This document shows, piece by piece, positions 4,064-27,048 of a DNA stretch of 29,007 bases. The stretch spans positions 262,546 through 291,552 of the forward strand of contig NW_017804120.1 in NCBI RefSeq assembly GCF_001625305.1. Reading direction: 5' to 3'. The notes beneath the pieces are model-generated. The model worked only from the letters and a program-made list of their open reading frames with translations, was not told the DNA's origin and did no database searches. The position numbers were made by a program, and so were the translations under genes. Numbering within the stretch: position 1 is the first letter of the stretch; each line of letters begins with the position of its first letter. The stretch is from Branchiostoma belcheri. Taxonomy: Eukaryota.

Positions 4064-4155
4064 GTTTGTTATGTTTACCTTCGTTTGTTATGTTTACCTT
4101 TGCAGAAGGAAAACATATGTGCTGTTTTTGCTCAGTCTTTTTTCTTCCTCTTATT

Positions 4156-4470: not shown

Positions 4471-4496
4471 TCTTCTTCAGAATCTACAAACAATAA

Positions 4497-4665
4497 TGTC
4501 AATGACCTGGACCAAAAGGCTGTCACCATGGTAACTGGTGATGTAGCAGTCAACCTGTGGTGTTGGATCACATTATGTAACAGGTTGCTGGACAGAATTT
4601 GTGGGGCTGGTCACCAAATATATTAATTTGAGTAAGAATAAGCAGAGCAGTACTTAGGCTACACC
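4497..4665 (+). repeat. Dispersed repeat family B, copy 2. Directly follows SINE copy 1.
   Basis: caatgacctggaccaaaaggctgtcaccatggtaactggtgatgtagcagtcaacctgtggtgttggatcac...tttgagtaagaataagcagagcagta. Confidence 0.6.
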
Positions 4666-4822
4666 ATGTAAATGTTTTTGAAGCTTTTCAATCTTCTAAT
4701 TTTCCATCTGCTATTCACAACTTAACATAAATCTCTATTCTGTACCTATACAATGCAATGTATTTTTGGTTTGCATGAATTGTGATATCAACATATTTTC
4801 AACACTGTATTCTTTTTTGTAG

Positions 4823-4896
4823 GATATGAGGAACTGTTTGCTGTTAGCCAACCCAGAATCAAGTCTAATGTTTCTAAGGCTGAAAACTTCATCCAG
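4823..4896 (+). CDS. Exon E of VIT+vWA gene. Encodes (G)YEELFAVSQPRIKSNVSKAENFIQ.
   Basis: Acceptor ttttttgtag|, donor |gtaggt. 74 nt, restores phase 0 from the phase-1 end of exon D. Confidence 0.7.
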
Positions 4897-5007
4897 GTAG
4901 GTGTTTGCTGTTTGTTTTCTTGTTTTTGAGTATATGCTTTTACTGATTAGGGAAGAAAAATGTATATTTTTTGTCCATGTGAAGTCTAAGGAATTGTTCT
5001 AGAGTAG

Positions 5008-5905
5008 TTTCATCTGTCCTTGGTGCTGATTGGTTGCTGCAATTTCATTTCAACTGATTCTATTTTACCTTTCCTTGGTGCTTATTGGCTATCACATGAA
5101 GCAGTCTCATTTTGATTAATTCTGTTTCACCTTTCCTTGGTGCTGATTGGCTATCACATGAAGTTGTCTCGTTTCAGTGATTCTATTTCATCTTTCCTTG
5201 GTGCTGATTGGCTATCACATGAAGTAGTCTCATTTCAGTGATTCTATTTCATCTTTCCTTGGTGCTGATTGGCTATCACATGAAGTAGTGTCATGTCAGT
5301 GATTCTATTTCATCTTTCCTTGGTGCTGATTGGCTATCACATGTTGTAATGTCATGTCAGTGATTCTATTTCATCTTTCCGTGCTGCTGATTGGCTATCA
5401 CATAAAGAAGTCTCATTTCAGTGATTGTATTTCATCTTTCCTTGGTGTTGATTGGCTATCACATGAAGTAGTCTCATTTCAATGATTCTATTTCACCTTT
5501 CCTTGGTGCTGATTGGCTATCACATGAAGCAGTCTCATTTCAATGATTCTATTTCACCTTTCCTTGGTGCTGATTGGCTATCACATGAAGCAGTCTCATT
5601 TCAGTGATTCTATTTCACCTTTCCTTGGTGCTGATTGGCTATCACATGAAGCAGTCTCATTTCAATGATTCTATTTCACCTTTCCTTGGTGCTGATTGGC
5701 TATCACATGAAGCAGTCTCATTTCAGTGATTCTATTACATCTTTCCTTGGTGCTGATTGGCTATCACATGAAGCAGTCTCATTTCAGTGATTCTATTACA
5801 TCTTTCCTTGGTGCTGATTGGCTATCACATGAAGTAGTCTCATTTTGATAAATTCTGTTTCATCTTTCTTGGGTGCTGGTTTGCAATCACATGTTATTAG
5901 GAAGT
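5008..5905. repeat. Intronic minisatellite. 61-bp unit x ~14.7 copies. Each unit contains CTGATTGGCT (reverse CCAAT box, NF-Y consensus).
   Basis: Unit ttggtgctgattggctatcacatgaagcagtctcatttcagtgattctatttcacctttcc repeats with a strict 61-bp period (e.g. 5136, 5197, 5258). Copies are 90-100% identical. Confidence 0.9.
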
Positions 5906-6012
5906 CTAATTTAAACTCCGTCTTTTCTTTCCTTGTATTTCCTTGCTTGTGTAATATTCAGAAGTTATCAATTCTGCAAAAAAAGTTGTAGGATGACAAA
6001 ACATTTTCTATC

Positions 6013-6174
6013 CATTATGAAATAAAGACTAAGCTTTAACTTCCAACACTTAGATTACAAAATTGGGACTTACCCAAATTTTCGGTTGACTCCATCAACC
6101 TTGTTCACTTTGGGTAAGTCCCAATTCTGTAATCTAAGTGTTGGAAGTTAAAGCTTAGTCTTTATTTCATAATG
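6013..6174. mobile_element. Foldback/hairpin MITE. Two 63-bp near-perfect inverted arms around a 36-bp loop.
   Basis: Left cattatgaaataaagactaagctttaacttccaacacttagattacaaaattgggacttaccc. The right arm is its reverse complement with 1 mismatch. Confidence 0.7.
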
Positions 6175-6246
6175 ACTTGTACCAACACAGATGAACTTTC
6201 ATGCTAAATTTTCTAACCATTTAAAAATTTGGGATTTTTTCACCAG

Positions 6247-6437
6247 GATCTCAAAGCATCAAAAGGAAATACAGATGCATGGAGGCCTCTTCACGGCTTT
6301 TTCCTGCTTCCCCCCTCCCCTGGAAAAACACGGAATGTGTTCCTGATCTCTGACGGACATGTGAACAACGCTGACCAGACTCTGAGTGACATCCACGCAC
6401 ACTACCTGGAAACTAGGGTCTTCAGCTGTGGAGTCGG
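6247..6437 (+). CDS. Exon F of VIT+vWA gene. Encodes DLKASKGNTDAWRPLHGFFLLPPSPGKTRNVFLISDGHVNNADQTLSDIHAHYLETRVFSCGVG.
   Basis: Acceptor tttcaccag|, donor |gtgagg. 191 nt, leaves phase 2. Parallels VWA5A GGTEILAPLQNIY...LFVFTDGEVTDTFSVIKEV...RCFSFGIG. Confidence 0.85.
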
Positions 6438-7028
6438 GTGAGGATCACTCAGAATATTGGTACCGGGAGCCAGGTCGGATAGCACAGGGAGGTGTTTGAG
6501 GAACTCTGGGGGAATCACGGTGCCCAAGGCACGGACAAACAGACTGTACAACTCGTTCCTCCACTGCACAATTAGACTGTACAATAGCGAAATGCAGACC
6601 AAGTGTTCTAGTGTTTCATGTCAAACTTTTGTATGTAATTGCCTTGTGCGTCTCTTGTACTTAGGTAAAGTCCACACAATTCAGGAGTACTACGTACCCC
6701 TGCTATGTTGACTGTTCTTAATAAAATTGAAATTGAAAATTGAAAATTGAAAATTGAAATTAATAAAATCACGCCAAATATCTCGTCCTATATCATATTT
6801 TGTATACTGGAATTCATTCTAGATGTGTCAGTTTTGAACCCCAAATTGACTTTTGAAATCTTACAGTGTCCTTCTTTGAAGTTTATTCTGGAATAGATTC
6901 ATGAAAAATTCTCCAGGAGTAGAATTTTCCAAACAACAAAAAATGCAGAACCATATGATGAATCAGATATAATTGCATATATCATTAGTCAACATTCACT
7001 AATGATTTTTACTAAATTGTTTTTTTAG

Positions 7029-7128
7029 ATCTACTTCCAACAAACATTTGCTGAGAGCCATAGCCAGGGTTGGAGGGGGAGCCTTCGAGTATTTTGATGA
7101 CAAAACCAAGTCTAAGTGGGAAAGGAAG
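7029..7128 (+). CDS. Exon G of VIT+vWA gene. Encodes (G)STSNKHLLRAIARVGGGAFEYFDDKTKSKWERK, the end of the vWA domain.
   Basis: Acceptor ttttttag|, donor |gtaagt. 100 nt, restores phase 0. Parallels VWA5A EGTSTSLIKGIARASGGTSEFITGKDRMQSKALR. Confidence 0.8.
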
Positions 7129-7295
7129 GTAAGTCTATCATTTTTTCATTAAACGTAATACATTTTGTAATAAATGGTTTATTGGCCAAACATCACCTGT
7201 GCAATCACAGCCTTTATAGTGCTGAATTGATGCAGGGTTTACAATCAAATGATACAGATGGTAATAATACACATAATAATACACATGATACATGG

Positions 7296-7565
7296 TTGTT
7301 CAACCTACATTTTTGTGGAACTGTCGCAAGGGTCTGTGCGGCTGCCATTCGGCGCCACAAGGTGACCTCAATATGGCTTTCCCCAACCAAAGTTAGGTAC
7401 CCATTCACACCTGGGTGGAGTGAGGAAAGTGGTGTAAAGTGCCTTTCCCAAGGGCACAACTTCGGGGCGCATGTTCAGACATGTCCCGGGTACGACTCGG
7501 GATCGAACCCGGGTCTCCCGGTTCACAGTCGAATGATCTACAACTACGCCACCCGATGCCACACG
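7296..7565 (-). mobile_element. tRNA-derived SINE, copy 2 (same family, ~80% similar to copy 1).
   Basis: Reverse complement reads GGCATCGGGTGGCGTAGTTGTAGATCATTCGACTGTGAACCGGGAGACCCGGGTTCGATCCC...GACATGTCTGAACATGCGCCCCGAAGTTGTGCCCTTGGGAAAGGCACTTTACACC, which aligns with copy 1. Confidence 0.75.
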
Positions 7566-8245
7566 TTTGTGAAGATTAGTCATCCAGCTAGGGTAGTAAC
7601 AATAAGGCCATGTTGATTTGATTATATGGATGACATCCTCCGGGAGCCCCCAAACTGATGCGCGCGTGCAAATAAAAAAAAAGTTTTGCAAAAAAAAAAG
7701 TTCTTTTCATTATGAAATCTACGTGGTCATGAGGGTTGAGCAAATGGCACAGAGTATGGTTTGGCGAATAATCTAGTCTTCAAGTTCATTTCTTTACAAT
7801 TTCGTCTTTTTTCCTTAAAGTTTGATTTTGGCATTCTACGACATTGGTATAGTTTTTATTAATTTTTTTACTGTAACTTATGGTATATTTTTGCTCATTT
7901 TGCAACTGTTTTGTACGATTTACAGTATGGTTGAAAACTTTTTTTTTTTTTGGAAACGGCCGAAAATTCATTGTGCTTTAAATGTGTTCTTTTCATTGAA
8001 AGAACAAACAAGAATAAAAGATGATGTTTAACAAACTTGCAGATTTGAAACTGTTGTTATCCATTATGTACTTGGCACAGAGACTTCCTTACACATAGAT
8101 AGATTTGTATGGCAGTTTTGATTTGAAGTTGTCATAAGAATATTAAGATTTTGAATAATAATTTTGGTGCTGTGTCATCTACATGTACTGTGCCTGTAAG
8201 TGCGCATGCACGTGTACAATGAAGGCTGGTAAAAATCTATATTTT

Positions 8246-8610
8246 TCAGGGTTCTCACCAGGATTTTTTCACAGCGTAGGGGTCAGGTATAGAAGGGCAA
8301 CTTTCTGCGGCGCGAGTCACGCACCGAGTCCCCAAACCATGGGCCTGATATTCTCCCCCCAAAATTTTGTAACACATATTAACCACTTAATACTCTACTT
8401 ATTGTTTATTGGGGGACAGATTTTGTTTTCCCTCTGTTATAGCTTCATTCTTAAGTTATATTTTCATTTTTTAAAACTTAAGATTAATGAAGCTTCTGCC
8501 CCCAAAAACCACCCCTACACTGGTTGAAACACAGTGTAGGGGGCTAAATCACAGCGTAGGGGGTCAAAATCACAGCGTAGGGGGCCCCTACGCTCAAACA
8601 GCCTGGTGAG
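8246..8610. mobile_element. MITE-like element with TIR cagggttctcaccagg / cctggtgagaac and internal reiterated CACAGCGTAGGGGG motifs. A partial related copy lies at ~28230-28340.
   Basis: TIRs at 8246-8262 and 8592-8607. cacagcgtagggg appears x4 inside. 28258-28320 (agcataggggccccctatgttatgattttgacccctatgct) is a diverged reverse-complement relative. Confidence 0.45.
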
Positions 8611-8799
8611 AACTATGTTTTTCATCAATTACATGTAAGATTTAAAAAGATTGTCAACTTGCTTTGATGACCCCAATGAAGTATTGGGGGGAGGTAATGT
8701 ACAAATGTATGCAAGTTGTCTCAATACTAGTATTTCTGTTTTAGTCTAACACTATTATAACAAATTATGCATTAGATGTCCACCCACCACAAGTAAGCT

Positions 8800-8950
8800 A
8801 TGTATACTGTGTCTCAAAAACATATGTCTCAGTATGGGCAAGATGGAGCCTCAGGAAGAATTCCTTTGACATTTTTCATCGATACATGTATGAGATGTAT
8901 TCCACTCAAAGACTGAGAGCTTGGATCAAAGAGATGTTATTTGAATGTGG
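8800..8950 (+). repeat. Dispersed repeat family C, copy 1.
   Basis: gtgtctc...tatgggcaagatggagcctcaggaagaattcctttgacatttttcatcgatacatgtatgagatgtattccactcaaagactgagagcttggatcaaagagatgtt is ~80% identical to 16725-16862. Confidence 0.55.
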
Positions 8951-9045
8951 TATGTTTAATTATTGGATGTTTTGCTGAAGTCTTGAACATGAAAACATAA
9001 CCCGCTGGGAGGGGGGGGGGATTACATTATACAATGTCCATGCTT

Positions 9046-9430
9046 AGGCCACACCAATTTAATTTGTTGGTTCGAATTCTCGGATTCACCTCAGTCTTCG
9101 TTTTTTTCTGATTTGCAAAAAAAAAAAAATTTGATTCTGGTCCTGAATCAACTGAAAAATGCTCATATTTTGCCCCCCAACAGTTGAGGAAAGTCCTTTT
9201 CTTCCTAGTTGTTACAGTTTTACCATCTATCATTGCAGTGGTTTGATTAAAAGTTCAAAATTCAATGTTTAAATTTTAACCCAGCCTTTTGTGTTGACTT
9301 CATGGCTCATTTTGTAGCATTTAAGCCTATAGGATGCCTAGACCTGTTTTTATTTTATTTTTTTTCGCCCTGTCGCTTCATATTTTTTCTGAAAAAATCC
9401 GAGAACCAACAAATTAAATTAGTGTGGCCT
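9046..9430 (+). mobile_element. MITE family A, copy 1 (~385 bp). Terminal inverted repeats GGCCACACCAATTTAATTTGTTGGTTC.
   Basis: Left end aggccacaccaatttaatttgttggttcgaattctcgg. Right end ccgagaaccaacaaattaaattagtgtggcct. AT-rich internal sequence, no coding capacity. Confidence 0.8.
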
Positions 9431-10268
9431 TAGTCCAAAATTAATGCCCTTTGAAAAACATGTACATGTCAGGACGGTCATGATTTGATCATCAAATTGT
9501 TTTAATATTTATCTTATTCTTAATGTCATCTATATTATTATGTAAAATTTAATGGTTCACAATGATAGAAAGTATGGGCTGTATGACAGGGGCATTACCA
9601 CTTGCTACGCCACCAGAGCCTAGGAAAAACATTGTCACGGTGTTACCTGTTTCCTGACTGGTACCATTTTGTTACCCTTAAAAAAAAACGATGACCCTAA
9701 CCTTTTTTTTAAATTTACTACTGGTAAGATTTTCCAATCTGACCTCTGAATTTCAAATCCTCTGAATTTCTGAAACAATACATTATGTATTAAAAAAAGC
9801 ACTGTTTTCTTCAGTAAATCTAGAGAAATTTGTCCACAAGCAAACAGGTGGACAGGTCCTCGAGACAGTGAGTCCAGATGCAATGCTAAACTCTTTGATT
9901 TATATATCATTATAATGTTCTTCATTTTAGCTGAAAGCTAAAAAAAATATCCCTACCTACAGCCCCTAGCTTTGTTCAGGACATAAACCAGACACACAAC
10001 ATTACATTTACTGCATCTTGGCGTCTTAGTATTTAATATTAGAATGTGTCTTGGACTTTGAAGAGGGACAATTTGGTACCGGGTTGAAAAAGAAAAGCGG
10101 ACAGGAAGACTTTTCTACGTCTTTATGTTTTGAAATAAAGGACCCGCCAATTCCATTAACATGCACGCATGCGCCTCAGACTTTGCAAATCATGAACTGT
10201 ATACATGACTGTATTCAAGCAACCCTGACTATGTAGACATTATATTTGGGCACGTAAGGCTCAGTACG

Positions 10269-10280
10269 TTTATATTACAA
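10269..10280 (+). promoter_or_regulatory. Possible TATA-like element (gtttatattaca) ~30 bp upstream of the LRR gene ATG. Speculative core promoter.
   Basis: Sequence motif only. The 5' UTR would be very short if used. No transcript data. Confidence 0.2.
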
Positions 10281-10303
10281 CGAGTGAGAATTCTGCAATC
10301 ACG

Positions 10304-10730
10304 ATGTCGCGAAACATGCTCTACTTCTTGCTCGTGGTTTCCAATCATCTATTTCTCGCGTCCGCACCCGCGTTGCGGTGCCCTGACAGCTGTAGCTCCA
10401 TCCAAGTTTTGTTTGCAAAGCAAATCATCTGTCGGTGCCCAGATAAAAACCAGGCGGGGTCCCCCTGCAGCTGGATTGGATACGGAGGAACGTACAGCTT
10501 TCCCGTATGTCTTGACGCCATACCAACCGACTTCGACAAAGCCACGCTATCGATCTGCATCAAGCATCTCCGTTCTCTGGTGATTTTAGAGCGGTCTTTC
10601 CCCAACAGCCCAGAAGTAGAGATACTTGAAATCCAAAAGTCCAACGTTTCAAGGGTCCAGCCAGGAGCTTTCCGAGGTCTCCCATTGGTCTCCAAGCTTG
10701 GTCTTGATGACAACCGCATCTCCAGTCTTG
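10304..10730 (+). CDS. Exon 1 of nested LRR transmembrane receptor gene. Signal peptide (MSRNMLYFLLVVSNHLFLASA), LRRNT cysteine cluster (CPDSCSS...C.C), then the first leucine-rich repeats up to ...LGLDDNRISSL(E).
   Basis: ATG at 10304 in a Kozak-like context (-3 A). Hydrophobic N-terminus. LxxLxLxxNxI repeats. Donor |gtacgt at 10731, leaving phase 1. Confidence 0.75.
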
Positions 10731-11450
10731 GTACGTTGGAAAAAATTTATTTTGGACTCCTCAGTTGGGTTAAGGCAGCCCAGACTTATACTATGATAAT
10801 TAGTTTTTCATACTTATGCCAGCAAATTCCGATAGCTTCAAAACTTCACACAGTTTTAGTAATATTTGAAACACATTGGATGCAGGTTACATTCAGATTC
10901 TGTGTAATCAGTTTTTCTACTGCTGCATTTTCGATTAGAATTAGAAATATTGGTTAAAAAATAGCCGTGTATTTCATGGGTCTACACGCAGGCTATATTT
11001 AAACAAGACCATCATTTTACAAAGTGAGAGCCATTTTATATGTCTATTTTGTTTCAAAACTAACTTAAAGACAATTACATTGTTTTTGGGGGGGTCAAAA
11101 CATCAGAAACTGGTCTTTTGGTCATTTTCGGTCAAAAATGTGCACCAGTTAAGAACATCAAAATTCATGCAAAATAGCCTTGGACAATTTTGATCAAATA
11201 AAATTGATTGCTCTTATTAATGTTAATAAGATCAATTCTGAGCTGCGTGTAAAGCCGCAGAAGTCATAACCCATTAAGAAATGTGTGACAATCTGGGTTT
11301 ACAATGGAATGTACATGATTGTACAAATGACCACCCGGGTGACCCCGAATCAAACACGTTCTGTTCAAATGAATACCAGCCTGGGCTGCCTTAATCTAAT
11401 GTACTATATTTATGATAAGACATTTAGGAAATCAACCAGTCCTGCAATTC

Positions 11451-11793
11451 AGGCCACACCAATTTAATTTTTTGGTTAACGGATTCGCCCGCTTCATTTT
11501 TTTCTGATTTGGAAATAAATATAAAAATTTTGAATCAACAGTTACTGCAAAATGCTCATATTTTGCCCTGAACAGTTAAAAACAGTCCTTTTCATCCTAG
11601 TTGTTACAGTTATTCCATCTTTCAATGCAATGGTATCATTAAAAGTTCAAAATTCATTGTTTAAATTTTAAACCAGCCTGGTGTGTTGACTTCATGGTTC
11701 CTATCGTACCATTTTGGGCCATATTTGGATGCCTAGGCCCGCTCACTCCTTTATTTTTCTATAAAAATCCAACAAATTAAATTGGTGTGGCCT
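11451..11793 (+). mobile_element. MITE family A, copy 2 (inside the intron of the LRR gene).
   Basis: aggccacaccaatttaattttttggtt ... aatccaacaaattaaattggtgtggcct. Internal sequence collinear with copy 1 (gctcatattttgccc...cagttg/aaaa...gtcctttt...ctagttgttacagtt...aaaagttcaaaattca). Confidence 0.8.
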
Positions 11794-12122
11794 CAGTATG
11801 AGTTTTTAAAAGACAAATCTATTTAAGCCAGTGTTAACTCTACACACTATACAGTACATAATACATTTAATCATATGAGTTACTAACAGAGCCGAAAGGT
11901 CTGGGCCGGCGATGGGAGATTTTACTGCACATATTTGTTAAGTAGATGCGTAAAATAGGGGATTGGGCTACTGATGTATCAATTTGTTTTCAAAAGCCAG
12001 AAAACGAACTGGATTGACGCTTTGCAGTTTCTACCATGAGTTACCTCACGACATGGAGGTCTTAAACTGAGAGCTCAAAAAGATCTAGCGAATTTCTAAC
12101 TTAGGTCTCCCCTCCGTTTTTC

Positions 12123-12367
12123 TTAGCCTCCTTCATAGTCTTGTTGGGCGTGGGTGTTATTTTTGTGAGCGACGTGAGTAATATGCCACCGCGAGGGACG
12201 AGTTGCTGCCGAGGGAATTTTTGCCGCAGAGAGGTTTCCTTGTTGGAGCGCGAAACCTTCTCTCCGCGGCAAAAACTCCCTCGGCAGCAAATCGTCCCTC
12301 GTGGCATATTACTCGCGTCGCTCACAAAAATAACGCCCACACCCAACAAGACTGCAAAGGAGGCTAG
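12123..12367. mobile_element. Near-perfect 245-bp palindrome (foldback element) in the LRR gene intron. Arms ~115 bp, centre at ~12245.
   Basis: cttagcctccttcatagtcttgttgggcgtgggtgttatttttgtgagcgacgtgagtaatatgccac... mirrored by ...gtggcatattactcgcgtcgctcacaaaaataacgcccacacccaacaagactgcaaaggaggctagg. Produces mirror-image artefactual ORFs on both strands (12101..12349 -, 12141..12470 +). Confidence 0.75.
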
Positions 12368-13052
12368 GATAGGGCGTCATTGTAGCATGTACATGTATAC
12401 TGGGGACCAAGAATTATCCGTAGTGCATGTTTTTGTATACGGTCAATCTGCCTGGTTTGTTGTGCCGTAATTCTGGCGGTCCAAACGGGAGCTGCATATT
12501 CTGAATTAGTACGTATATACTAGGTTTGATATCAAAAGGTGCTGAGATCATATGAGGGAAGCTTACGAAATTCAATGCATTATGTGCACATGGGCCTTTT
12601 TCCACAGTTCAATTATTATTTTCTTTTTCTTATTTAGTAGGTACCCCGGTGGGTTGGCAGCGTATTCTTTCCTGTTGGTAGGGGTGTTTGGCATTATCAA
12701 CAAAATGATAGCATGCATGTAATGTTCAGAATATGATGATTTTCTTATGTGAGGCACGGAGGGGAAAAGGGCCTGGCTGGAGCTGTACAGGTTTATTATT
12801 CTAAATGACCGCAGGTGACCCTAAATGGAATATGCATTTGGTTTGAATTGATCGAGTGTGATCTAACAGAGTTTGGTTGCTAAAAAAGGTGGGAGCAATG
12901 AAGTCCAAGTTTATGCACTGTGGACTGATATGATGAGCTATTGTGTTAGATATCTGTGATTGAGTTTTTGGTATTTGTTGCTGCCATCTCATAAGTTTTT
13001 TTAAAAATCCCTTCGAAAATGATTAACAGTAGTTCGTTTTTTTTATCCTCAG

Positions 13053-15227
13053 AACCTGATACCTTCCTTGGGCTTGAGAAGGTAAAAGTCTTGAACCTTC
13101 AAAGGAACGCCATTTCCGTCATATCCCAGCATGCATTCTGCGGCCTACCTCTCCTATCCGTGTTGGTGTTAAGCATGAACCGTCTGCGTTCCGTGCCTGT
13201 CGACGCACTCCTGCCGCTTACAGCACTGAAGTTTGCACACCTGGAAACAAACCACATCACCACGATCGACAGCAAAATCCTGCGTCTGAATCACAACCAG
13301 ACCTTACGTCTGGCGTTATATGACAACCCGCTAAAATGTGACGCAAATCTCACCTGGTTCATCTGTAGTCTACCAGAGCTGGACTACATCGCTGGTCATC
13401 AACTCCTAAAGTGTGCGTCACCTGCCAACCTGAGCGGCATTCTGCTAGCCACCCTGAGGAAAGACATCAGTCAGACCAACATGGACAGGTCACCAAAGGG
13501 GATCAGGCTGGGGAGATGTGATGAAACGTCCACCACAACAGATCCGCATACCCATCTCACCAGGCTACACAACCACACCAGTCTGTACAACCACACCATT
13601 CCCACAGAGATGCCGTACACACACACCAGGCCAGGCTCAGAGTCTACCACAGGGACTGACGTGGTCACTCTTCACGGCGGCCCAATCATCACTGAGGAAG
13701 ACGACAGTTACCACGTCAATGCCGTCATCATGGCTGTTGTTGTGCCTCTCCTGATGGTGTTAGCAGCGGGGGTTGTCGTCTACTTGTACGAACGCTGTCA
13801 CGGCACACGTATGGCCCGGCGCAACGCCCCTGTTGAAACAGATGGAAACTCTGCCCAATCAGGAGCATCAGTCACGGGCACTCCTGCTCAGGACCAGACA
13901 TCAGAGGGTAACGATGACATTGAGCCATACGCTGTGTCATACATGGATGTGTCGGGAAAGGAAAAACGGCAAGCTTGCACCGTACGCAACAACCTCCTTT
14001 GCTAACATCCAGACAGCAGAAGAAAACGATGACATTGAGCCGTACGCTGTGTCATACATGGATGTGTCAGGGAAAGGGAAAAACGGCAAGCTTGCACCGT
14101 ACGCAACAACCTCCTTTGCTAACATCCAGACAACAGAAGACAACGATGACATTGAGCCGTACGCTGTGTCATACATGGATGTGTCCGGGAAAGGGAAAAA
14201 TGGCAAGCTTGCGCCGTACGCAACAACGTCCTTTGCTAACATCCAGCCAATAGAGGACAACGATGACATCCAGCCAATTGAAGACAACGATGACATCGAG
14301 CCATACGCTGTGTCATACATGGATGTGTCGGGGAAAGGGAAAAATGGCAAGCTTGCGCCGTACGCAACAACGTCCTTTGCTAACATCCAGCCAATAGAGG
14401 ACAACAATGACATCCAGCCAATTGAAGACAACGATGACATTGAGCCATACGCTGTGTCATACATGGATGTGTCGGGGAAGGGGAAAAATGGCAAGCTTTT
14501 TCCATATGCGACAACCTCCATCAATGAAGACCCAGGGCCACAGCTTCAGCCGTACGCAGTGACCCACGATGAAGACCCAGGGCCACAGCTTCAGCCATAT
14601 GCAGTGACCCACGATGAAGACCCAGGGCCACAGCTTCAGCCATATGCAATGACCCACGATGAAGACCCAGGGCCACAGCTTCAGCCATATGCAGTGACCC
14701 ACGATAAAGACCCAGGGCCACAGCTTCAGCCATATGCAGTGACCCACGATGAAGACCCCACACAAGCTACAAGATGCCATACAAGGGCAGGTTATACGTC
14801 GCTGACAAATGTCACTAACCAACAGACAACAAACGTCAAACAACCGGTCAACAAATCAGAGGGTCAGTCACTGCCAAAAGAGACAAACATCAAGCCAAAC
14901 TATGAGAAAGGCTACCCATCAACAAGAGATGGCAGGGGTCCATATGGAATGGGCAAGGGAAATGAGGTCCCAGGTGTCAGTGGAACGCTGTATCAAAGTG
15001 GCTCACAGCACACTGATACAAGAGCTGACAGGGGTACATATGGAATGGGCAAGGGAAATGAGGTCCCAAGTGTTAGTGGAACACTGTACCGAAATGGCTC
15101 ACAGCACACTGATACAAGAGATGACAGGGGTCCTTATGGAATGGGCAAGGGGAATGAGGTCCCAAGTGTCAGTGGAACACTGTACAGAAGTTGCTCACAG
15201 CACACTGGTGCAGAGAAGCACAGCTAA
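13053..15227 (+). CDS. Exon 2 of nested LRR-TM receptor. Encodes remaining LRRs, LRRCT (NPLKCDANLTWFICSLPELDYIAGHQLLKCASP), Thr/His-rich N-glycosylated stalk, transmembrane helix (AVIMAVVVPLLMVLAAGVVVYLY) and a cytoplasmic tail. The tail is made of three tandem repeat arrays rich in Tyr motifs (EPYAVSYMDVSGKGKNGKLAPYATTSFANIQ x5-6, DPGPQLQPYAVTHDE x5, RGPYGMGKGNEVPSVSGTLYRSGSQHTDTRDD x3). Stop TAA at 15225-15227. A 1-bp deletion near 13955-13965 shifts frame 2 to frame 0.
   Basis: Acceptor ttttttttatcctcag| at 13051-13052. Joining g(10730)+aa(13053-13054) gives GAA, in frame with exon 1 and a perfect LRR continuation. Two overlapping ORFs (13019..14005 and 13773..15227) differ by one missing g in the first repeat (gggaaagg-aaaaacgg versus gggaaagggaaaaacgg in later copies). 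Repeat periods 111, 45 and 105 bp are multiples of 3. Confidence 0.7.
13895..15215 (+). repeat. Coding tandem repeat arrays inside LRR gene exon 2. 111 bp x ~5.5 (13895-14520), 45 bp x 5 (14521-14755), 105 bp x 3 (14925-15215).
   Basis: Directly visible reiteration (e.g. gatgacattgagccatacgctgtgtcatacatggatgtgtcgggaaagggaaaaa..). Periods are multiples of 3 and the frame is kept open for 1.3 kb. Confidence 0.9.
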
Positions 15228-15277
15228 ACTCGCACGCTGTAGGACACGTAATTTTGTACAGCTCACAAACAGCCTGA

Positions 15278-15560
15278 GTTTAGACAGCACATCTCAAAAT
15301 CACAATCCTTTAGAACTCCGCTCACGGACAGCCAGGAGTAATGACAGCATATCTCACATGCTTTAGAACACAGCACATCATCAAGGACAGCATGAGGGTT
15401 TAGACAGCACATCTCAAAATCACAATCCTTTAGAACTCAGCTCACGGACAGCCAGGAGTAATGACAGCATATCTCACATGCTTTAGAACACAGCACATCA
15501 TCAAGGACAGCATGAGAGTTTAGACAGCACATCTCAAAATCACAAAGGGTCACAATCCCT
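15278..15560. repeat. 120-bp tandem repeat x ~2.3 in the presumed 3' UTR of the LRR gene.
   Basis: gtttagacagcacatctcaaaatcacaatcctttagaactc.gctcacggacagccaggagtaatgacagcatatctcacatgctttagaacacagcacatcatcaaggacagcatgag.g recurs at 15278, 15398 and 15518 with >97% identity. Confidence 0.85.
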
Positions 15561-15721
15561 AAGACGGGACTTTAAGCTGTGGTGCACTGTTCATTTTGCT
15601 TGTCGATAAGAGCCAGGAGAATTTACCTGGTACAATGAACCTGTAAATACTGTACATAGCGTCTGTCTTGTCTCTCACGACCAGTGTGAGCTACAACCGG
15701 ATCGAGATCGAGATTTTGATT

Positions 15722-15968
15722 TTTTTTAATTTTATTGAAATTGCAACAGTGCAATACACGCGGAACAGCTAGAGGCAGCTGTTGCTGGTGTTGTGTCCCA
15801 CACATAGAAACAAACACTGGACAGACAATACTCATTTTCACTTGAGTCTAGAGGGGAAAGTCTTGTAAAGTGCCTTCTCCCAAGGGCACAAGATTGGTGG
15901 CATGTCAGAACTCGAACCCGGGACCTCTTGATTCCGAGTCGTGCACGCTGCCATTGCGCCACACGACA
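15722..15968 (-). mobile_element. tRNA-derived SINE, copy 3 (divergent subfamily). Lies ~500 bp downstream of the LRR gene stop, with an A-run tail at its 3' end (T-run at 15722-15730 on +).
   Basis: Reverse complement GTGGCGCAATGGCAGCGTGCACGACTCGGAATCAAGAGGTCCCGGGTTCGAGTTCTGACATGCCACCAATCTTGTGCCCTTGGGAGAAGGCACTTTACAAGAC. Shares the tRNA head and the GTGCCCTTGGGA.AAGGCAC core. Confidence 0.65.
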
Positions 15969-16427
15969 CAATTTCCTTTGTTACAACAATTCCGCTTTCG
16001 ACTATACCCCGAAGTGATAACAAACTGAATTTCTTGCAGTGATGCAGTTATTGACTTATAAGAAACAAGGGTCTTGCTGCTGATCATAATATGACTGTAA
16101 CAAGGGCCTCATCCTGTTTATTCTACAGTCACGTTTCCAAACCTATGCCCTGCCGGGTAGGTATATATTTCTGCATCATTCTGTATTTGGTATAGCCGGT
16201 ATAACCCTTCAGCATAACACACCAGCTTTGCAGACGCGCGGCCTGGCGGCGGCTAGTCAATATCACACCGAACGACCTGTTACACTCAATATTTACACAT
16301 TTAATTGCAGTTGAGTTGTTAACATCATTTTAGCTTTAGCCAGATCATAGAAGAACAAGTCGTACCAAGGACAAGACAAATTATGCTAATGCTTTAGAAC
16401 AAGAACATTCTTTGCAAGAACACGCTT

Positions 16428-16700
16428 AGCCACCTTAACAGCAGAAAATCACCCTTTCTTTCTCAATAGTCCATCAGTCAAGAGAAAATTTCATGCTGAC
16501 AGTTTCTTCCCCAGAACCACTTCACTGTGGAACAAGCTTCCCCGTGAATGTTTCACCGCTAATTACAACCTCCAACGGTTTAAATCAAGGGTGAACAAAT
16601 ATCTGACCACGCAGTCATCACTGTAACCCAAAACATGTAAGTGGCTCTCACGAGCCTTGTTTTGAGGTGAATCTGAAGTAAATAAAAAAAAAAAAGCTCA
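16428..16700 (+). mobile_element. 5'-truncated CR1/L2-clade LINE 3' end. Last ~65 codons of the ORF2 C-terminus (…FHADSFFPRTTSLWNKLPRECFTANYNLQRFKSRVNKYLTTQSSL*) plus a short 3' UTR ending in an A-run (16683-16695).
   Basis: SFFPRT..WN.LP...L..FK.R..K.L is the characteristic C-terminal motif of CR1-like reverse-transcriptase ORF2 proteins (e.g. NSFFPRTIRDWNALP...LEAFKARLDKAL). Followed by aaataaaaaaaaaaaag. Confidence 0.6.
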
Positions 16701-16724
16701 GCCTGTGTAATGTATCTGGAAAAT

Positions 16725-16862
16725 TAATGTGTCTCGTATAGGACCTGCAAGGCGGAGAAAGAATTCCTTTTGACATTTTTCATCAGTACGTTCTATGGGA
16801 TGTATTCCACTCAAGAAAAGAGAGCTCGCGGATCAAAGAGATGTAGTCTGAACGTCTGAATT
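16725..16862 (+). repeat. Dispersed repeat family C, copy 2. Immediately downstream of the LINE tail.
   Basis: gtgtctcgtataggacctgcaaggcggagaaagaattccttttgacatttttcatcagtacgttctatgggatgtattccactcaagaaaagagagctcgcggatcaaagagatgta. Confidence 0.55.
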
Positions 16863-17222
16863 TCATTTCTGACTGCGCAGTCAAAGACTTAGTGTTGAAT
16901 ATGAAACCTCAATCCACTGATGAAACTACTAACAATACTGTACAACTACTGTACTATACAATGTCCTGGATGCTAATAATCCAGCATTTAATACCCTGCC
17001 AAAAGCAATAATTATTGTATATGTCAGGATCAACAAGATTTATCTAGTACATATGATACATGTATTATGCAACTTGAATGTATATTACACATATGAAAAC
17101 ACACTTATACATAATCACTGTCACTGTGTTTATGACATGTGTATGCGTGTATATTATACGCACATACACGTCATAAACACAGGGACATACACATACAGTA
17201 CACACACTTATATGCACACAGT

Positions 17223-17238
17223 CACACACACACACAAG

Positions 17239-17267
<29 letters not shown>
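17223..17267. repeat. (CA)n microsatellite within an AT/CA-rich low-complexity block (17050-17280). The block also contains a ~50-bp hairpin at 17130-17182.
   Basis: cacacacacaagcacacacacacacacacacacacacacacac. Palindrome tgtttatgacatgtgtatgcgtgtatattatacgcacatacacgtcataaaca. Confidence 0.9.
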
Positions 17268-17270
<3 letters not shown>

Positions 17271-17580
17271 TTAAGGTGATGTATATAGTATGGAAATGTT
17301 ACTCATTGACAAGCAACTACTAGTAGATAAATACAAACAGGAAATTAGTGGAAGTATTTTTCTCTCACTTAGATGTTCAAAGAATATGTTGTATACATGT
17401 TGTTAACATCTTTACATTACGTAAACCTACGAAAATATTTGGCTGCACGAGAAAAACTGGGTGCACAGCTCCCGTTTTGGGTGCACTAATTGTAATTAAA
17501 TAAGGTGCACATGCACCCAGTATTTTGGGCCCTGTTACATAATAATGATATTAATATCTAAAACTGTGTTAAAACTCCAG

Positions 17581-17751
17581 GTGAAATCTCAGCTGTGGAA
17601 AGCCGCCCAGCCTGGCCTAACGTCCGTGTCAGTTGATTGGCAGCAGTGGGATGATGATGCTCCGCCTCCCGTCCAGGCGCCCAATCAGATCGTCTCTCTC
17701 TTCAACGGCTCTCGTCAAGTGGTGTACGGTTACGTCCCTCACTGCACCCAG
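17581..17751 (+). CDS. Exon H of VIT+vWA gene. Encodes VKSQLWKAAQPGLTSVSVDWQQWDDDAPPPVQAPNQIVSLFNGSRQVVYGYVPHCTQ.
   Basis: Acceptor aaaactccag|, donor |gtgaac. 171 nt, phase 0. Contiguous in the VWA5A alignment with exon G (TLKRSLQPAVEDVSLSWHLPPG...VIFRGQRLISYAQLTG). Implies a ~10.4 kb intron between 7129 and 17580. Confidence 0.8.
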
Positions 17752-17889
17752 GTGAACATATTTCCTCTCCCAGCTTGCAAAGTAGCATTATGGTTGTTTC
17801 CATGCTTTTAGTGATGTTGACTAAGAATCTATTAGTAAAGGTTCTGGCAGGGTTTTTAATCCTTTCTGTTGTTGACAGTTTGAAAACAT

Positions 17890-18390
17890 ATTGTTTTTGC
17901 TCAGTTTATTTATTTATTTATTTCATCATAAGACAGCTGGGTAGCCCCGTTCATTAGCTGTTTTTCAAGGGGGCCCAGCAAAATTACACAAGACATTGTT
18001 ACATACAGTAAGACAAGAGTGGACAACATACAGTAAACATAAAAGTCTGATGCGTCAAAACAGAGTCATAGTCCTATACTCAAAGTCCTAGCCGTTCAAA
18101 GGTCAAAACACGAAAATCAAGGAATGGAGATTGGTTTATTCTTCTTCGTCAGTTCCAAATTCATTGACCTGGACCAGGTGTACATGTATGTCATAATGGA
18201 AACTGGTGCTGTAGCAACACCCTGTGGTGTTGGGTTACTTTAAAAAATGTATGTACATGTATCAGAACAGATTTGAAGAGGCTGCCCATCATCATACATA
18301 TATTAAGTATTTGACTTTGAGTAAGAATAAACAGAGCAGTAGTTTGTTCAGCTAGACAGTGAACTTCAAGGTAACATTAACTCAAAAATA
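17890..18390 (+). repeat. Dispersed repeat family B, copy 3. Interrupted by a nested 222-bp insertion (17911-18132) flanked by a 7-bp direct duplication GTTTATT.
   Basis: ttgtttttgctcagtttatt | insertion | gtttattcttcttcgtcagttccaaattcattgacctggaccaggtg...gtggtgttgggttac...tttgagtaagaataaacagagcagtagtttgttcagctagac. The uninterrupted homologue is at 22018-22285. Confidence 0.7.
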
Positions 18391-18612
18391 CTATCATGAA
18401 AGTTGGTAGTTACATGTTTAATGTTAAAACTTTTGTTCCAACACGAAAAATTCTCTCACCTAGAGCTTTCGACCAGTCACTCTGGTCATCCTCAGTAGAC
18501 TGACCCAGTGAAGCTTGTCACATGGCTTCTTTGAAGTGTGACGTCAACACTGGGTCAAAGGTATCTGGTAGACAATGTCGACCCCCATCGCGGTTCAATG
18601 TAGGGTGATGCA
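18391..18612. mobile_element. Solo arm of foldback family F (same family as 27722-28215).
   Basis: ctatcatgaaagttggtagttacatgtttaatgttaaaacttttgttccaacacgaaaaattctctcacctagagctttcgaccagtcactctggtc...gggtcaaaggtatctggtagacaatgtcgacccccatcgcggttcaatgtagggtgatg is ~90% identical to the left arm at 27722-27930. Confidence 0.7.
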
Positions 18613-19370
18613 CTACCAAAAATGCTTTTTCTTGTTTTTCTTATTTTCTCATGGGAAGAAAATTTTTCTTTGGGGGAGAATAATAAGAAAAAAATAAGAA
18701 AAAAATAAATTTTCTGTATACCTACATTCTTGCACCAAGAACTATTTCCTCATTTTTCTTGAGTGGAGATAATTTTTCTAAAATAGGCTTCTTTAAATCT
18801 TGATTTTTCTTTGGTGAAGAAATATTTCTAGAGGAGATTCTAACTTACAAGATTAGAATTCTTGTAATCTTGAAATTTCTTTAGTAAAGACAATATTTCT
18901 AGGGAAGATTCTAAGTTACAAGATTAAAATTCTTTTAATCTTAAAATTCCCTCAGACTTAGTTAAATTTTCTTATTTAATCTCCATGGAAGATTTCTTTC
19001 TTACCTGACATCAAAGTGGTCAGATTTAAGATTTTTTTTCTTGTGTATTTCAAAAAATTTCTAGTTCATGTTACCGAGAATGATTGAAAAAGGCCATTCT
19101 TGTTTTTCTTAGCAATGTTTAAGAAAATACAAGAATTTGGTTCTTGCCTTTCTTGGCAAACACTGATTGGAAAAGCAAGAAATTTAATTATCTAAATCTA
19201 TTATTAGAATAAAGCTCTGCTTAGTGTTTCTTTCTTAAAGTTTCTTGTTTTTCTTGACTAGAAAGCTTAAGAAAGATCATTCTTGTTTTTCTTGGCAACA
19301 TTTAAGAAAATACAAGAATAAAGTTCTTATCTTTCTTGACAAATACTGATAAGAAAAAAAACTAGAGAGG
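18610..19370. repeat. Satellite-like low-complexity domain built from the mutually reverse-complementary words TTCTTG/CAAGAA. Includes ~75-bp tandem units (18760-18960) and two ~100-bp units (19060-19160, 19262-19365). A related block lies at 20270-20420.
   Basis: Recurrent aagaaaggccattcttgtttttcttagcaa(c/t)(a/g)tttaagaaaatacaagaat at 19085, 19275 and 20290. Extreme ttcttg / aagaaa word bias. Confidence 0.6.
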
Positions 19371-20160: not shown

Positions 20161-21249
20161 CCATACCATGGTATGGACTGAAATATAACAAGAAAGTCTG
20201 ATATAAAATTGATCTTTGATTAGGCTGAAGATATGGCTAGTATTATATTCTTAAACATTCTTGATTTTCTTCCCTAGTAAGTTTAAGAAAGGCCATTCTT
20301 GTTTTTCTTAGCAACATTTAAGAAAATACCAGAAAGTTTAAGAAAGATGATTCTTATTTTGCCTGGTGATGTTCAAGATGATGTAAGAACTTTTTTCTAG
20401 TTTTTCTTGTCATGTGACCTTTTCTAAACCCCTGATTGGTTGATTCAAATCCCAGAATGCAGTTAGGGGTTTTGAACATAAGTCAGATGTAAGAGCCGCG
20501 CTGCTACTTATTTTTGTCAGTTACTGACTCATGTCAGATTTGAAGTCAAAATCAAATCAAAAAGGACCTTGTGTACATGTGAAGCAATGGAGATCGTGGT
20601 CATCTTGCTGAAGAAACCAACTTTGCAACAGAAAAAGCATGAAACCAAACAGATTGAAGGTAAGTGCGCCCCCCTCCCCACCTATAAGATCTGTTGACAT
20701 TGTTTTTAGACTTCATAGCCCAAATATTGTTACAACGCCATTGGGGTTGATTTCAAAGTCAAATCATTATCTCTGGTGTATTGTATAGTAAAGTTTATTA
20801 CAGTGCTTTCTAATACAATTTTAAATTGTTTACTCCAAGTAATAAAATAGTATTTTAGCATCCTCTTTTGACTTGTTGCCTTCAGTACACGCATGCAAAC
20901 TAACACAGGTCTTTCCTGTTGTTTTTCAGGTGTCCAAAGGGTGTGACTTTGCCAATTCTATAATGCGAAAACTGCAGTTTTTGCTGAATATGCTTCTGAT
21001 CTGAATGTGATACGATCTGTATTCTGAAATCATAATGGCTTGTTAGTTACATCGTATAATATTTTGAAAGTTACTGTTAACTCTTTCCATTCCAAGAATG
21101 TTGATGGACTGATTTTATATTTTTAATTAGATACATTGTACAAAAATCAATGTGATAATAAACATCTCTATAGTGTCCAAATGCTTTTCAAAATAACATT
21201 TAGTTGCTATACATTATTGTCTGTTTTATATTTAGGTAGCACTATATAC

Positions 21250-22285: not shown

Positions 22286-22354
22286 AATTATTATAATAAT
22301 AATTATGCATTAATGGCTTAAAGTTTCTAGTTTTAATGTTTTGTTTCATTTCAG

Positions 22355-27045: not shown

Positions 27046-27048
27046 CAG

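Follow-up and report, generated by a model that had tools for sequence, protein, structure and literature searches.

The locus described here, in a 29,007-nucleotide window of Branchiostoma belcheri contig NW_017804120.1, is a real, autonomous, self-contained two-exon gene lying within an intron of another gene, and sequence comparison identifies it as one member of a large family of type I membrane receptors confined to amphioxus. We consider it fairly probable that its product would be a ligand-diversified receptor signaling via multivalent phosphotyrosine docking, and that the break in its reading frame is a consensus error or a very young lesion.

The two-exon model put forward in a preliminary description (Table 1) holds: the intron has GT/AG borders in phase 1 and falls at exactly one codon position in nine genes, namely this gene and eight paralogues from the B. 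belcheri and hybrid assemblies. Exon 1 ends with the first base of codon 143, followed by GTACGT; TCCTCAG stands just before exon 2, whose stop codon is at 15225-15227; and the eight paralogues have a common junction, AGTCTT/G GTAYGT ... YCYCAG/A. The intron splits a single leucine-rich repeat (LRR c), so that the LRR series continues across it as first described, and an inverted-repeat search located within it a palindrome of 249 bp (12121-12369) as well as MITE-like copies. In an alignment of the 250 nt upstream of the ATG from nine family genes at different loci, blocks are conserved among these dispersed paralogues, suggesting that the 5' flank is probably the gene's own promoter.

Host and nested gene lie on the same strand, and the hosting intron measures 10,452 nt (7129-17580), in agreement with the nesting in an intron of about 10.4 kb reported earlier. 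The two flanking host exons match consecutive residues of PARP4-like homologues, with their splice sites located, and the joined exons score as Pfam VWA_3 (8e-19). The host had been called VWA5A-like; however, its best matches are PARP4-like proteins, none being named VWA5A, and a PARP4-like identity appears more likely from these similarities.

Table 1. Features of the nested LRR receptor gene and of the adjoining host exons (positions in the window; aa, residues of the frame-corrected product).
Feature	Position	Strand	Description
Host PARP4-like VIT-vWA exon, directly upstream of hosting intron	7029-7128	+	P0072 residues 542-575
5' flank	10100-10303	+	CCAAT-like GCCAATTCCATTAA, CTCAGACT, GACATTATAT, AAGGCTCAGTAC; blocks conserved among paralogues
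Exon 1	10304-10730	+	ATG, signal peptide aa 1-20, N-cap, LRR a, b, first half of LRR c
Intron	10731-13052	+	Phase 1, GT...AG, 2322 nt
Exon 2	13053-15227	+	Rest of LRR c, LRR d-g, C-cap, stalk, TM helix, tail, stop
LRRCT-type C-cap	13331-13483	+	NPLKCDANLTWFIC...LKCASPANLSG; paralogue-variable loop aa 254-260
Stalk	13484-13720	+	Thr/His-rich, NHT sites; predicted disordered, pLDDT below 50
Transmembrane (TM) helix	13721-13789	+	AVIMAVVVPLLMVLAAGVVVYLY, aa 366-388; hydropathy 2.82, AF2 helix
Repeat array A	13894-14527	+	5 units: 115/117/144/144 nt + partial; unit encodes DDIEPYAVSYMDVSGKGKNGKLAPYATTSFANIQ, 3 Tyr
Frame break	13954-13969	+	GGGAAAGGAAAAACGG in array A unit 1; unit 2 nt shorter than sister units
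Repeat array B	14520-14764	+	5 units of 45 nt; unit encodes EDPGPQLQPYAVTHD
Repeat array C	14922-15212	+	3 units of 96 nt; unit encodes RGPYGMGKGNEVPSVSGTLYRSGSQHTD, 2 Tyr
Host PARP4-like exon, directly downstream of hosting intron	17581-17751	+	P0072 residues 574-633

Far from being a one-off gene, the locus has relatives in about 75 Branchiostoma database proteins from three species, in which this LRR-TM module is likewise followed by these tail peptides, against any assignment of the LRRs and the repeats to separate genes. The preliminary description recognized no named family, and the relatives are indeed uncharacterized: they are annotated as "uncharacterized" or "LRRCT domain-containing", some having been auto-named SLITRK2/5, RTN4RL2, or LRRC24-like. 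When the tail alone was scanned against 1.84 billion proteins, no convincing member appeared outside Branchiostoma. Examples include Bbelb_123210 (P0001) and LOC109479450 (P0005) in B. belcheri, C3YJA4 (P0010) in B. floridae, and models fused to "PRMT7" (P0006) and "HPS3" (P0106) in B. lanceolatum. At 55-79% identity, the paralogues share the N-cap signature CPxxC...CxCP...SPCSW(I/V)GxGG...FPxCLDAIPT, the LRR count, C-cap, stalk, TM...YERCH junction, and repeat peptides, together with the two-exon structure and conserved 5' flank. They differ in concave-face residues, in repeat copy number (from 2 to about 19), and, in some, by an added fourth array (STSHRLYNTAHGQNESEN), while the nested copy is set apart by its frame break and by lying in another host gene. 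No orthologue of the nested gene at a matching position was found.

As assembled, the open reading frame stops at 14005. The first unit of array A has 115 nt against 117 nt in the next and reads GTGTC-GGGAAAGG-AAAAAC, a net change of -2 (or +1); measured against its sister units, the unit lacks a net 2 nt in G runs, and the break is not the simple 1-bp frameshift it had been taken for. Either an error in the consensus or a lesion of very recent origin, possibly allelic, accounts for it, and without correction the predicted product would be a 459-aa receptor keeping one EPYAVSYMDV motif. The nested copy could instead be a dead or dying pseudogene, with a real and fixed break and a truncated or absent product, as might be argued from the correction needed for the assembled sequence to read through, from the two G runs involved, which would require two separate changes from the sister-unit sequence, and from the absence of the exact product from protein databases, where the best identity is 66-69%. 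We regard this as unlikely, since the 419 codons downstream of the break are free of stops in a single frame, against 8 and 31 stops in the two others; composition predicts about 19, and none of 2000 shuffles was free of stops. Moreover, the splice sites, start codon, and promoter-like blocks are intact, and nearly all differences between repeat units are at synonymous sites. This applies to array A, where 11 of 16 variant codons are synonymous and all five nonsynonymous ones sit in the last, junction unit, and not to arrays B and C, where between-unit variation is not mostly synonymous. Across seven loci, 21 of 25 A-core units encode one 16-aa peptide via 19 DNA versions (pN 0.014, pS 0.31, a ratio biased by the picking of units by peptide pattern). 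The tail repeats are thus coding, and their peptide sequences stay constant while synonymous sites drift. A parallel break from A6 to A7 in a homopolymer of paralogue P0012, with 491 codons intact downstream, has the pattern usually left in GGGAAAGGGAAAAA tracts by consensus errors or by indels of very young age.

The acidic cytoplasmic tail comprises 478 aa with 29 tyrosines and three in-frame tandem arrays, whose TRF periods (117/144, 45, and 96 nt) are all multiples of 3; its tandem, tyrosine-rich character had been recognized, but its size was underestimated at about 450 aa and 25 tyrosines. The tyrosines recur within a small set of constant contexts (IEPYAVSYMDV, LAPYATTSF, LQPYAVTHD, GPYGMG, and GTLY). 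VSYMDV occurs five times (five to six had been claimed), PYATT five times, QPYAVT four times plus one QPYAMT (instead of five QPYAVT), and G[PT]YGMG and GTLY three times each, as originally counted. Throughout the family, the conserved tyrosine is that of [IL]-[QE]-P-Y-A-V-x-Y, a motif whose logo draws on 266 unique instances, with 58 of the 59 family proteins represented. Compared with the ITIM, ITSM, ITAM, YxxM, YxN, and NPxY patterns, it fits none, and it is not an ITIM because its hydrophobic residue stands at -3. VSYMDV does fit the ITIM consensus as a pattern, five times, in one subclade only; the five matches are copies of one unit, and tail composition gives an estimate of about 0.7 chance matches among 29 tyrosines. 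The proposed likeness to the PI3K-docking YMDMSK context of PDGFR is lost, as the tail has no YxxM.

Another reading is that the tail serves for activation or scaffolding (in the manner of LAT, Gab, or CagA, with recruitment of kinases and adaptors such as Csk, Crk, or Grb2) and is not that of an inhibitory ITIM receptor. The conserved motif is PYAV and not an ITIM, an ITIM match is lacking in most family members, most tyrosines have acidic residues before them, and E-P-Y-A resembles the E-P-I-Y-A segments of Helicobacter pylori CagA, which bind Csk and SHP2. CagA and the LAT/PAG-type transmembrane adaptors also carry reiterated tyrosine motifs in a disordered acidic region, with copy numbers that vary among alleles or paralogues, although they share no sequence homology with the amphioxus receptor, which fuses its motifs to a putative ligand-binding ectodomain. 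Nevertheless, this alternative is doubtful: a scan of the tail for signaling motifs found no ITAM, no YxxM, and only one YxN, and the gene's own subclade keeps VxY[MV]DV in three species.

For the ectodomain, sequence and the AF2 model agree on the receptor architecture originally described, from the signal peptide and Cys N-cap through LRRs, C-cap, and Thr/His stalk with NHT sites to the TM helix. The six-Cys extended N-cap (aa 21-78) is encoded in exon 1 and aligns with paralogue N-termini, and the ectodomain has six N-x-S/T sites. Among the Pfam/SMART domains suggested for the protein, LRR_8 is recovered (9e-21) and LRRCT gives no score on the C-cap in the profile search; the LRRs number seven (a-g), not about six, in a single capped horseshoe. 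The model has pLDDT above 90 across the capped LRR domain, followed by a disordered stalk and the TM helix, and LGR4, TLR3, and NgR are among the strong matches of a PDB sequence search. Nearly all amino-acid change between paralogues falls at solvent-exposed x positions of the concave beta-sheet, in the N-cap hairpin, and in the C-cap loop, whereas the scaffold is nearly invariant. For concave positions versus scaffold, pN/pS is 1.22 versus 0.24, by pairwise counting in nine genes with a split chosen after the pattern was seen and with a somewhat raised concave pS (0.35); entropy is 1.60 bits at concave positions versus 0.27 at other LRR columns. The ratio peaks at the correct register among 19 shifted masks, pN tracks the LxxLxLxxN periodicity, and the variable residues lie on or adjoin predicted strands. 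The concave face may thus bind ligands, with family members selected for different ones.

Such a horseshoe could also belong to an adhesion molecule with a developmental or neuronal role, like those of the SLITRK/AMIGO/SALM/NgR type, with tail tyrosines serving trafficking or cytoskeletal links instead of immune-type signaling. The closest solved folds are indeed AMIGO-1, Nogo receptor, 5T4, SALM5, and Slitrk1 (Foldseek E about 1e-10 to 1e-8; TM-score normalized to target length up to 0.80), which, like GPIb-alpha, have a capped horseshoe of 6-8 LRRs; the SLITRK- and RTN4RL2-type automatic names point the same way, and YMDV also fits the YxxPhi sorting pattern. However, identity to those folds is about 20%, their tails are unrelated and lack PYAV and tyrosine arrays, and they have features absent from the amphioxus receptor, be it a second LRR block (SLITRKs), Ig (AMIGO/SALM), or a GPI anchor. 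A large lineage-restricted family with a hypervariable concave face and pN/pS of at least 1 is unusual for conserved synaptic organizers and typical of recognition families, leaving this alternative rather improbable. Least credible by far is that the tail repeats are non-coding satellite with an accidental open frame, separate from the LRR part: the sequence is highly repetitive and its ORF is in two pieces in the assembly, but opening in one frame only, periods in multiples of 3, and the LRR-TM-tail linkage across the family contradict this, as does the mostly synonymous between-unit variation in array A (not B or C) and in the pooled, pattern-selected units of seven loci.

Returning to the receptor reading, ligand-driven clustering would lead a Src-family kinase to phosphorylate the tail tyrosines, creating a multivalent docking platform for SH2 proteins whose valency would be tuned by repeat copy number. 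Since the five VSYMDV sites fit the ITIM pattern, SHP- or SHIP-type phosphatases would be the likeliest partners and the output may be inhibitory or modulatory, by analogy with BbLcLRR, a Lck-associated inhibitory LRR receptor of B. belcheri for which phosphorylation by Lck and recruitment of SHIP1 and SHP1/2 via ITIM-like tyrosines have been demonstrated experimentally (Zhou et al. 2021, PMC8211107). BbLcLRR is the closest studied analogue but not a family member. Both are amphioxus type I LRR-TM proteins with cytoplasmic tyrosines as signaling elements and ITIM-like motifs ending in Val; however, BbLcLRR (699 aa, with a reported WSC-like insert) represents a separate gene lineage and has three single tyrosines without tandem arrays or PYAV, in motifs of its own (DDYATV, HDYSEV, and HDYDDP) that occur in 0 of the 71 matches of the first family search.

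Lamprey VLRs and the amphioxus VLR-like Bf66946 (PMC4731796) resemble the present family in placing diversity on concave beta-strand x positions and cap loops, and they bind ligands on the concave face. In contrast to VLRs, diversity here is germline, lying between complete paralogous genes without cassette assembly, and a TM helix with a long signaling tail replaces the GPI-anchored stalk or secreted form. We infer a function in immune or adhesion signaling, and the hypervariable concave face adds support for a recognition role.

A full-length search with the product of the nested gene, the two-exon leucine-rich repeat (LRR) receptor gene inside a host-gene intron, brought up 59 proteins from Branchiostoma that share its architecture. 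The window itself is lancelet genomic DNA, and the strong matches are without exception to B. belcheri, B. lanceolatum, B. floridae, or an assembly of a B. floridae x B. belcheri hybrid. These proteins lack functional names, and a few are named automatically, e.g., as SLITRK5 or LRRC24-like. The remark in the preliminary description that the receptor is not recognised as a named family stands as far as naming goes, with every member "uncharacterized" or auto-named, but the gene is not isolated, since about 75 such proteins are in current databases. A phmmer search with the tail only, against 1.84 billion cluster representatives, gave just 53 matches, about 37 of them family members and about 16 unrelated repeat proteins without LRRs or PYAV, and all eight of the new family-like tail matches that were looked up are from Branchiostoma. 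On these sequence matches, the family is confined to lancelets. Two weak tail-like repeat proteins, P0132 (ENA, 88 aa) and P0136 (JGI, 324 aa), are built of units (EDPDEMQHYALTNS and PIDEGGPMAVPYASS) similar to EDPGPQLQPYAVTHD, perhaps only by chance through low complexity. The best paralogues are 66-79% identical to the nested-gene product, and pS between the nested gene and eight genes from B. belcheri and the hybrid assembly is 0.2-0.35. We found no description of the family in literature on the PYAV motif, the paralogue locus names, or amphioxus LRR surveys. The family is distinct from BbLcLRR, the Lck-associated inhibitory LRR receptor of B. belcheri, whose three motifs occur in none of the matches and which is a different gene, and from FrLRR, which is GPI anchored and of Slit2 type.

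The proposed two-exon model proved exact at both boundaries, judged by splice-site sequence (see the table). The intron of 2,322 nt is in phase 1, and one LRR continues uninterrupted across the junction in the spliced product (LVSKLGLDDNRISSL/EPDTFLGLE, with the slash marking the junction). Among eight paralogous genes extracted from six loci in two other assemblies, the sole intron lies at the same codon in every case, with the junction ...ATCTCCAGTCTT/G GTAYGT...YCYCAG/A; the phase-1 intron follows ...DNRISSL, and with the nested gene counted, all nine genes share an identical junction. This conserved intron position is the best available support for the 10730/13053 junction short of RNA. 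GT..AG mini-introns bypassing the frame break described below (e.g., 13949-14012) are possible on paper but disfavoured, as no paralogue needs them. Open reading frames on the antisense strand and in the intron of the nested-gene region gave no family matches. The intron is 2-4 times longer than those of the paralogues (585-1394 nt), to which a near-perfect palindrome, probably inserted as a foldback or MITE-type element, contributes. One copy of a dispersed element also lies in this intron, flanked by terminal inverted repeats, and looks MITE-like.

Coordinates of the nested gene, its host gene, and other features of the window
Feature	Position	Strand	Remarks
Nested gene, exon 1	10304-10730	+	followed by GTACGT
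Nested gene, exon 2	13053-15227	+	TCCTCAG directly 5'
VIT-similar host exons	1370-1525	+	sequence similarity; 5' of nested gene
vWA-similar host exons	3814-7128	+	sequence similarity; 5' of nested gene
Host exon, upstream	7029-7128	+	PARP4-like homologue residues 542-575 map to 7030-7131
Host exon, downstream	17581-17751	+	homologue residues 574-633 map to 17578-17757
Further host exons	22352-22435, 24550-24660, 25208-25390	+	PARP4-like matches
Exon for divergent 14-3-3 C-terminal half	27088-27331	+	inside ORF 26995-27480; Pfam 2e-22, profile positions 145-223 of 223
Palindrome, 249 bp	12121-12369		arms 69 nt (90% complementary) and 45 nt (91%)
Dispersed element, ~160 nt, three copies	9169-9331, 11561-11723, 23774-23936		61-82% identity
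Terminal inverted repeats, 25 nt	11451-11475, 11769-11793		flank the copy in the nested gene's intron
tRNA-like sequence	7409-7493	+	tRNA-Gly(CCC) at 7409 by ARAGORN
tRNA-like sequence	15897-15968	-	29.5 bits in Rfam (cut-off 29)
tRNA-like sequence	23362-23429	+	
Tandem repeat, 120-nt unit x2.2	15276-15545		98% identity; 50 nt past the stop, presumed 3' UTR
First AATAAA past the nested gene's stop	16681	+	
Host-intron minisatellite	4989-5959		period 61 nt, ~16 copies
Host-intron minisatellite	21248-21867		period 62 nt, ~10 copies

The host had been called VWA5A-like. VIT and vWA exons are indeed present, but no match bears the name VWA5A, and the named ones are PARP4-like; the best, an unnamed protein (P0072), shares 59% identity and has a PARP catalytic domain (PF00644). 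The window starts inside the host VIT domain, and the PARP domain, expected before VIT and vWA, would fall outside it. A database search with the host exons returned no Branchiostoma PARP4 protein. Since the homologue residues mapped to the upstream and downstream exons run on from one another, these exons are consecutive and the hosting intron measures 10,452 nt. The 5' flank of the nested gene is conserved and common to paralogues at unrelated loci, which points to a transcription unit of its own. Nesting is seen again in other members of the family. Paralogue P0012 and its tandem sister lie inside a glycogen debranching enzyme gene on the same strand (6001-9798 of locus L002, B. floridae x B. 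belcheri assembly CM033056.1), and paralogue P0001 and its tandem sister (10001-18724 of locus L001) sit between the halves of a USP9X/24-like gene, on the strand opposite to it, and are probably nested within it. In B. lanceolatum, gene models fuse family members to HPS3 and PRMT7, from which we infer nesting in these genes as well. As a result of this recurrent nesting, automatic annotation joins some members to HPS3 or PRMT7 and cuts others in two at homopolymer errors.

Elsewhere in the window, an exon for a divergent 14-3-3 C-terminal half lies downstream of the last recognisable host exons, and two minisatellites occupy host introns. Rfam over 9800-17600 gave nothing but a borderline tRNA, the tRNA-like sequence in the 3' flank of the nested gene. 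The tRNA-like copy at 7418 shows 87% similarity to that at 23362, and the tRNA-like sequences are probably tRNA-derived SINEs.

As assembled, the reading frame of the nested gene is interrupted. The preliminary description took this for a 1-bp frameshift, but one slip of 1 bp does not account for it: array A, the first of three tandem-repeat arrays coding the tail, begins with a unit of 115 nt, against 117 nt in unit 2, and this unit 1 reads GTGTC-GGGAAAGG-AAAAAC where the sister units read GTGTCNGGGAAAGGGAAAAAC. Net, the break at 13954-13969 leaves the G runs two bases short, which amounts to the gain of one base with the loss of a codon. The assembled ORF ends at 14005 (...SGKEKRQACTVRNNLLC*), giving a 459-aa receptor with one EPYAVSYMDV motif, and one base less or two more restores an ORF of 866 or 867 aa. 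A parallel case is found in P0012, where an A6-to-A7 change in GGGAAAGGAAAAAACGG cuts the annotated protein short at 520 aa, its out-of-frame end being the same as here, while the remaining 491 codons are intact and annotated as a separate gene. Purine homopolymer tracts of this kind are thus hot spots for consensus errors or young indels, and either may account for the break in the nested gene. The gene is one member, possibly a defective one, of an existing, unstudied family.

The earlier interpretation as a receptor was largely right: the architecture is confirmed, in one member of this family rather than a lone gene. Of the domains proposed for the ectodomain, LRR_8 is detected by Pfam (9e-21), but the LRRNT and LRRCT models give no score, which indicates that the caps are divergent; we assign them from the cysteine pattern and a predicted structure. 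A PDB sequence search with the product matched LGR4, TLR3, Nogo receptor, and IGFALS. The AlphaFold2 model, built from an alignment of 46 family sequences (A1), has pLDDT above 90 across residues 21-286 and predicts an extended N-cap with six cysteines and two beta-hairpins, seven LRR strands, and a helical C-cap, followed by a disordered Thr/His-rich stalk and a single transmembrane (TM) helix (residues 366-388). The six-cysteine N-cap signature SPCSW(I/V)GxGG...FPxCLDAIPT is present in the nested gene, and its columns are nearly invariant in A1 and in a nine-gene alignment. In Foldseek, the ectodomain groups with ordinary capped extracellular LRR modules, with folds similar to AMIGO-1, Nogo receptor, 5T4, SALM5, GPIb-alpha, and Slitrk1 at about 20% identity to each; for Slitrk1, the TM-score normalised to target length is 0.80. 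SLITRK proteins have two capped LRR domains in tandem, whereas the nested-gene product has one, and in contrast to Toll-like receptors, which carry a cytoplasmic TIR domain, it has no TIR in Pfam and its tail consists of repeats.

Variation among family members is concentrated on the concave face of the LRR domain. In a codon alignment of nine family genes, we defined the concave mask as positions 2, 3, 5, 7, and 8 (x) of LxxLxLxxN in six LRRs, and mean column entropy is 1.60 bits at these positions versus 0.27 in other LRR columns. Pooled pN/pS, obtained by pairwise counting in nine genes with a concave/scaffold partition set after inspection, is 1.22 for the 30 concave codons, 0.24 for the remaining LRR-block codons, and 0.43 for all other columns, and the concave dN of 0.66 is about twice the scaffold dS of 0.31. 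Shifting the mask by -6 to +12 codons gives pN/pS of 0.15-0.91, always below the in-register value, and pN per position tracks the repeat register (0.27-0.56 at x, 0.00-0.07 at L and N, and at most 0.14 on the convex side). Variable patches lie, in addition, on residues 31-38 (the first hairpin of the N-cap) and 254-260 (a loop of the C-cap), and the variable LRR residues lie on or adjoin predicted beta-strands. Since gene conversion would homogenise tracts rather than alternate codons, selection for different binding surfaces among paralogues is the simplest reading of this codon pattern. The pattern of variability, though nothing else, is like that of variable lymphocyte receptors (VLRs); the germline VLR gene is incomplete and is completed by somatic insertion of LRR cassettes, whereas the nested gene is complete in the germline, with all LRRs encoded in two exons.

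The tail, of 478 aa with 29 tyrosines, is coding sequence, as first proposed. The periods of its three arrays (117/144, 45, and 96 nt) are all multiples of three, and of the three frames 3' of the frame break just one is open, over 419 codons, against 8 and 31 stops in the others; about 19 stops are expected from base composition, and none of 2,000 shuffles was stop free. Variant codons in array A comprise 11 synonymous and 5 nonsynonymous ones, the latter all in the last unit at the join of arrays A and B. Moreover, 21 of 25 A-core units from seven loci encode the identical 16-residue peptide DDIEPYAVSYMDVSGK through 19 different DNA versions, with pN of 0.014, biased downward by the choice of units by peptide pattern, and pS of 0.31. 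A chance ORF in satellite DNA is excluded by the array periods, the single open frame, and the synonymous-biased variation in array A. Pfam finds no TIR or other domain in the tail; its weak matches to Me-amine-dh_L and DUF5505, without a domain-level stretch, are repeat artefacts.

The tail motifs are VSYMDV (x5), PYATT (x5), QPYA[V/M]T (x5), G[P/T]YGMG (x3), and GTLY (x3), with [IL][QE]PYAVx[YH] repeated after the TM helix and nine PYA[VIL] sites, or ten with QPYAMT. What is common to essentially all members is a PYAV-type motif and not an ITIM: [I/L]-[Q/E]-P-Y-A-V-[T/A]-Y-x-[D/E]-D occurs in 266 unique instances in 58 of the 59 Branchiostoma proteins, whereas the 12 LRR matches from outside Branchiostoma all lack it. 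The proposed ITIM consensus (I/V/L/S)xYxx(L/V/I) is matched by all five VSYMDV sites, but these are copies of one unit, and VxY[M/V]DV with its 39/48-residue carrier unit is found in only one subclade, which includes the nested gene. The suggested likeness to PDGFR-type PI3K docking fails, since the tail has no YxxM and YMDV has Val at +3. ITAM (Yxx(L/I)-x6-12-Yxx(L/I)), ITSM (TxYxx(V/I)), and NPxY gave no matches in the tail, and YxN occurs once. VSYMDV is the only tail pattern matching a known reader, and the dominant PYAV motif fits no known SH2/PTB consensus tested.

Beyond the observed architecture, tail conservation, and ectodomain variability, we propose that the concave face would bind ligands differing between paralogues, and that the disordered acidic tail may offer multivalent docking through phosphotyrosines. 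The one amphioxus LRR-TM receptor that has been studied, BbLcLRR, is a substrate of Lck and recruits both SHIP1 and SHP1/2 via ITIM-like sites (PMC8211107). With this precedent and the fit of VSYMDV to the ITIM, an inhibitory or modulatory output is our best single guess, and by analogy with BbLcLRR alone the tail may be phosphorylated by Src-family kinases and recruit SHP-1, SHP-2, or SHIP. A strong competing reading is that the tail activates signalling or acts as an adaptor. The lineage restriction, family size, and concave-face diversification make adhesion of the SLITRK or AMIGO kind less likely. We tentatively suggest, at somewhat less than even confidence, that these proteins are LRR recognition receptors diversified in the germline and form a family, so far undescribed, found in cephalochordates alone (about 75 database proteins), with positive selection on the concave face placed as in VLRs but arising via gene duplication, a new phosphotyrosine motif, [IL][QE]PYAVxY, in copy-variable repeats, and recurrent nesting in other genes.

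For the origin of vertebrate immunity, the reference outgroup is amphioxus, whose immune repertoire has been surveyed chiefly for TLRs, NLRs, RAG-like genes, and the proto-MHC; one example, a pan-cephalochordate survey of 2026 (PMC13012124), is confined to the first three and the MHC. The peptides pYAVSpYMDV, pYAVTHD, and pYATTSF are testable probes of a possibly new SH2 or PTB specificity. The interest rests with the family, namely its binding-face diversification, its apparently undescribed copy-variable tyrosine motif, and its recurrent intronic nesting. If our reading is true, lancelets would have a large LRR receptor family combining binding-face variability with a dedicated tyrosine-based tail, a candidate second arm of LRR-based recognition with SH2-type rather than TIR signalling, in which the recognition logic of VLRs would be joined to the signalling logic of ITIM/ITAM receptors.
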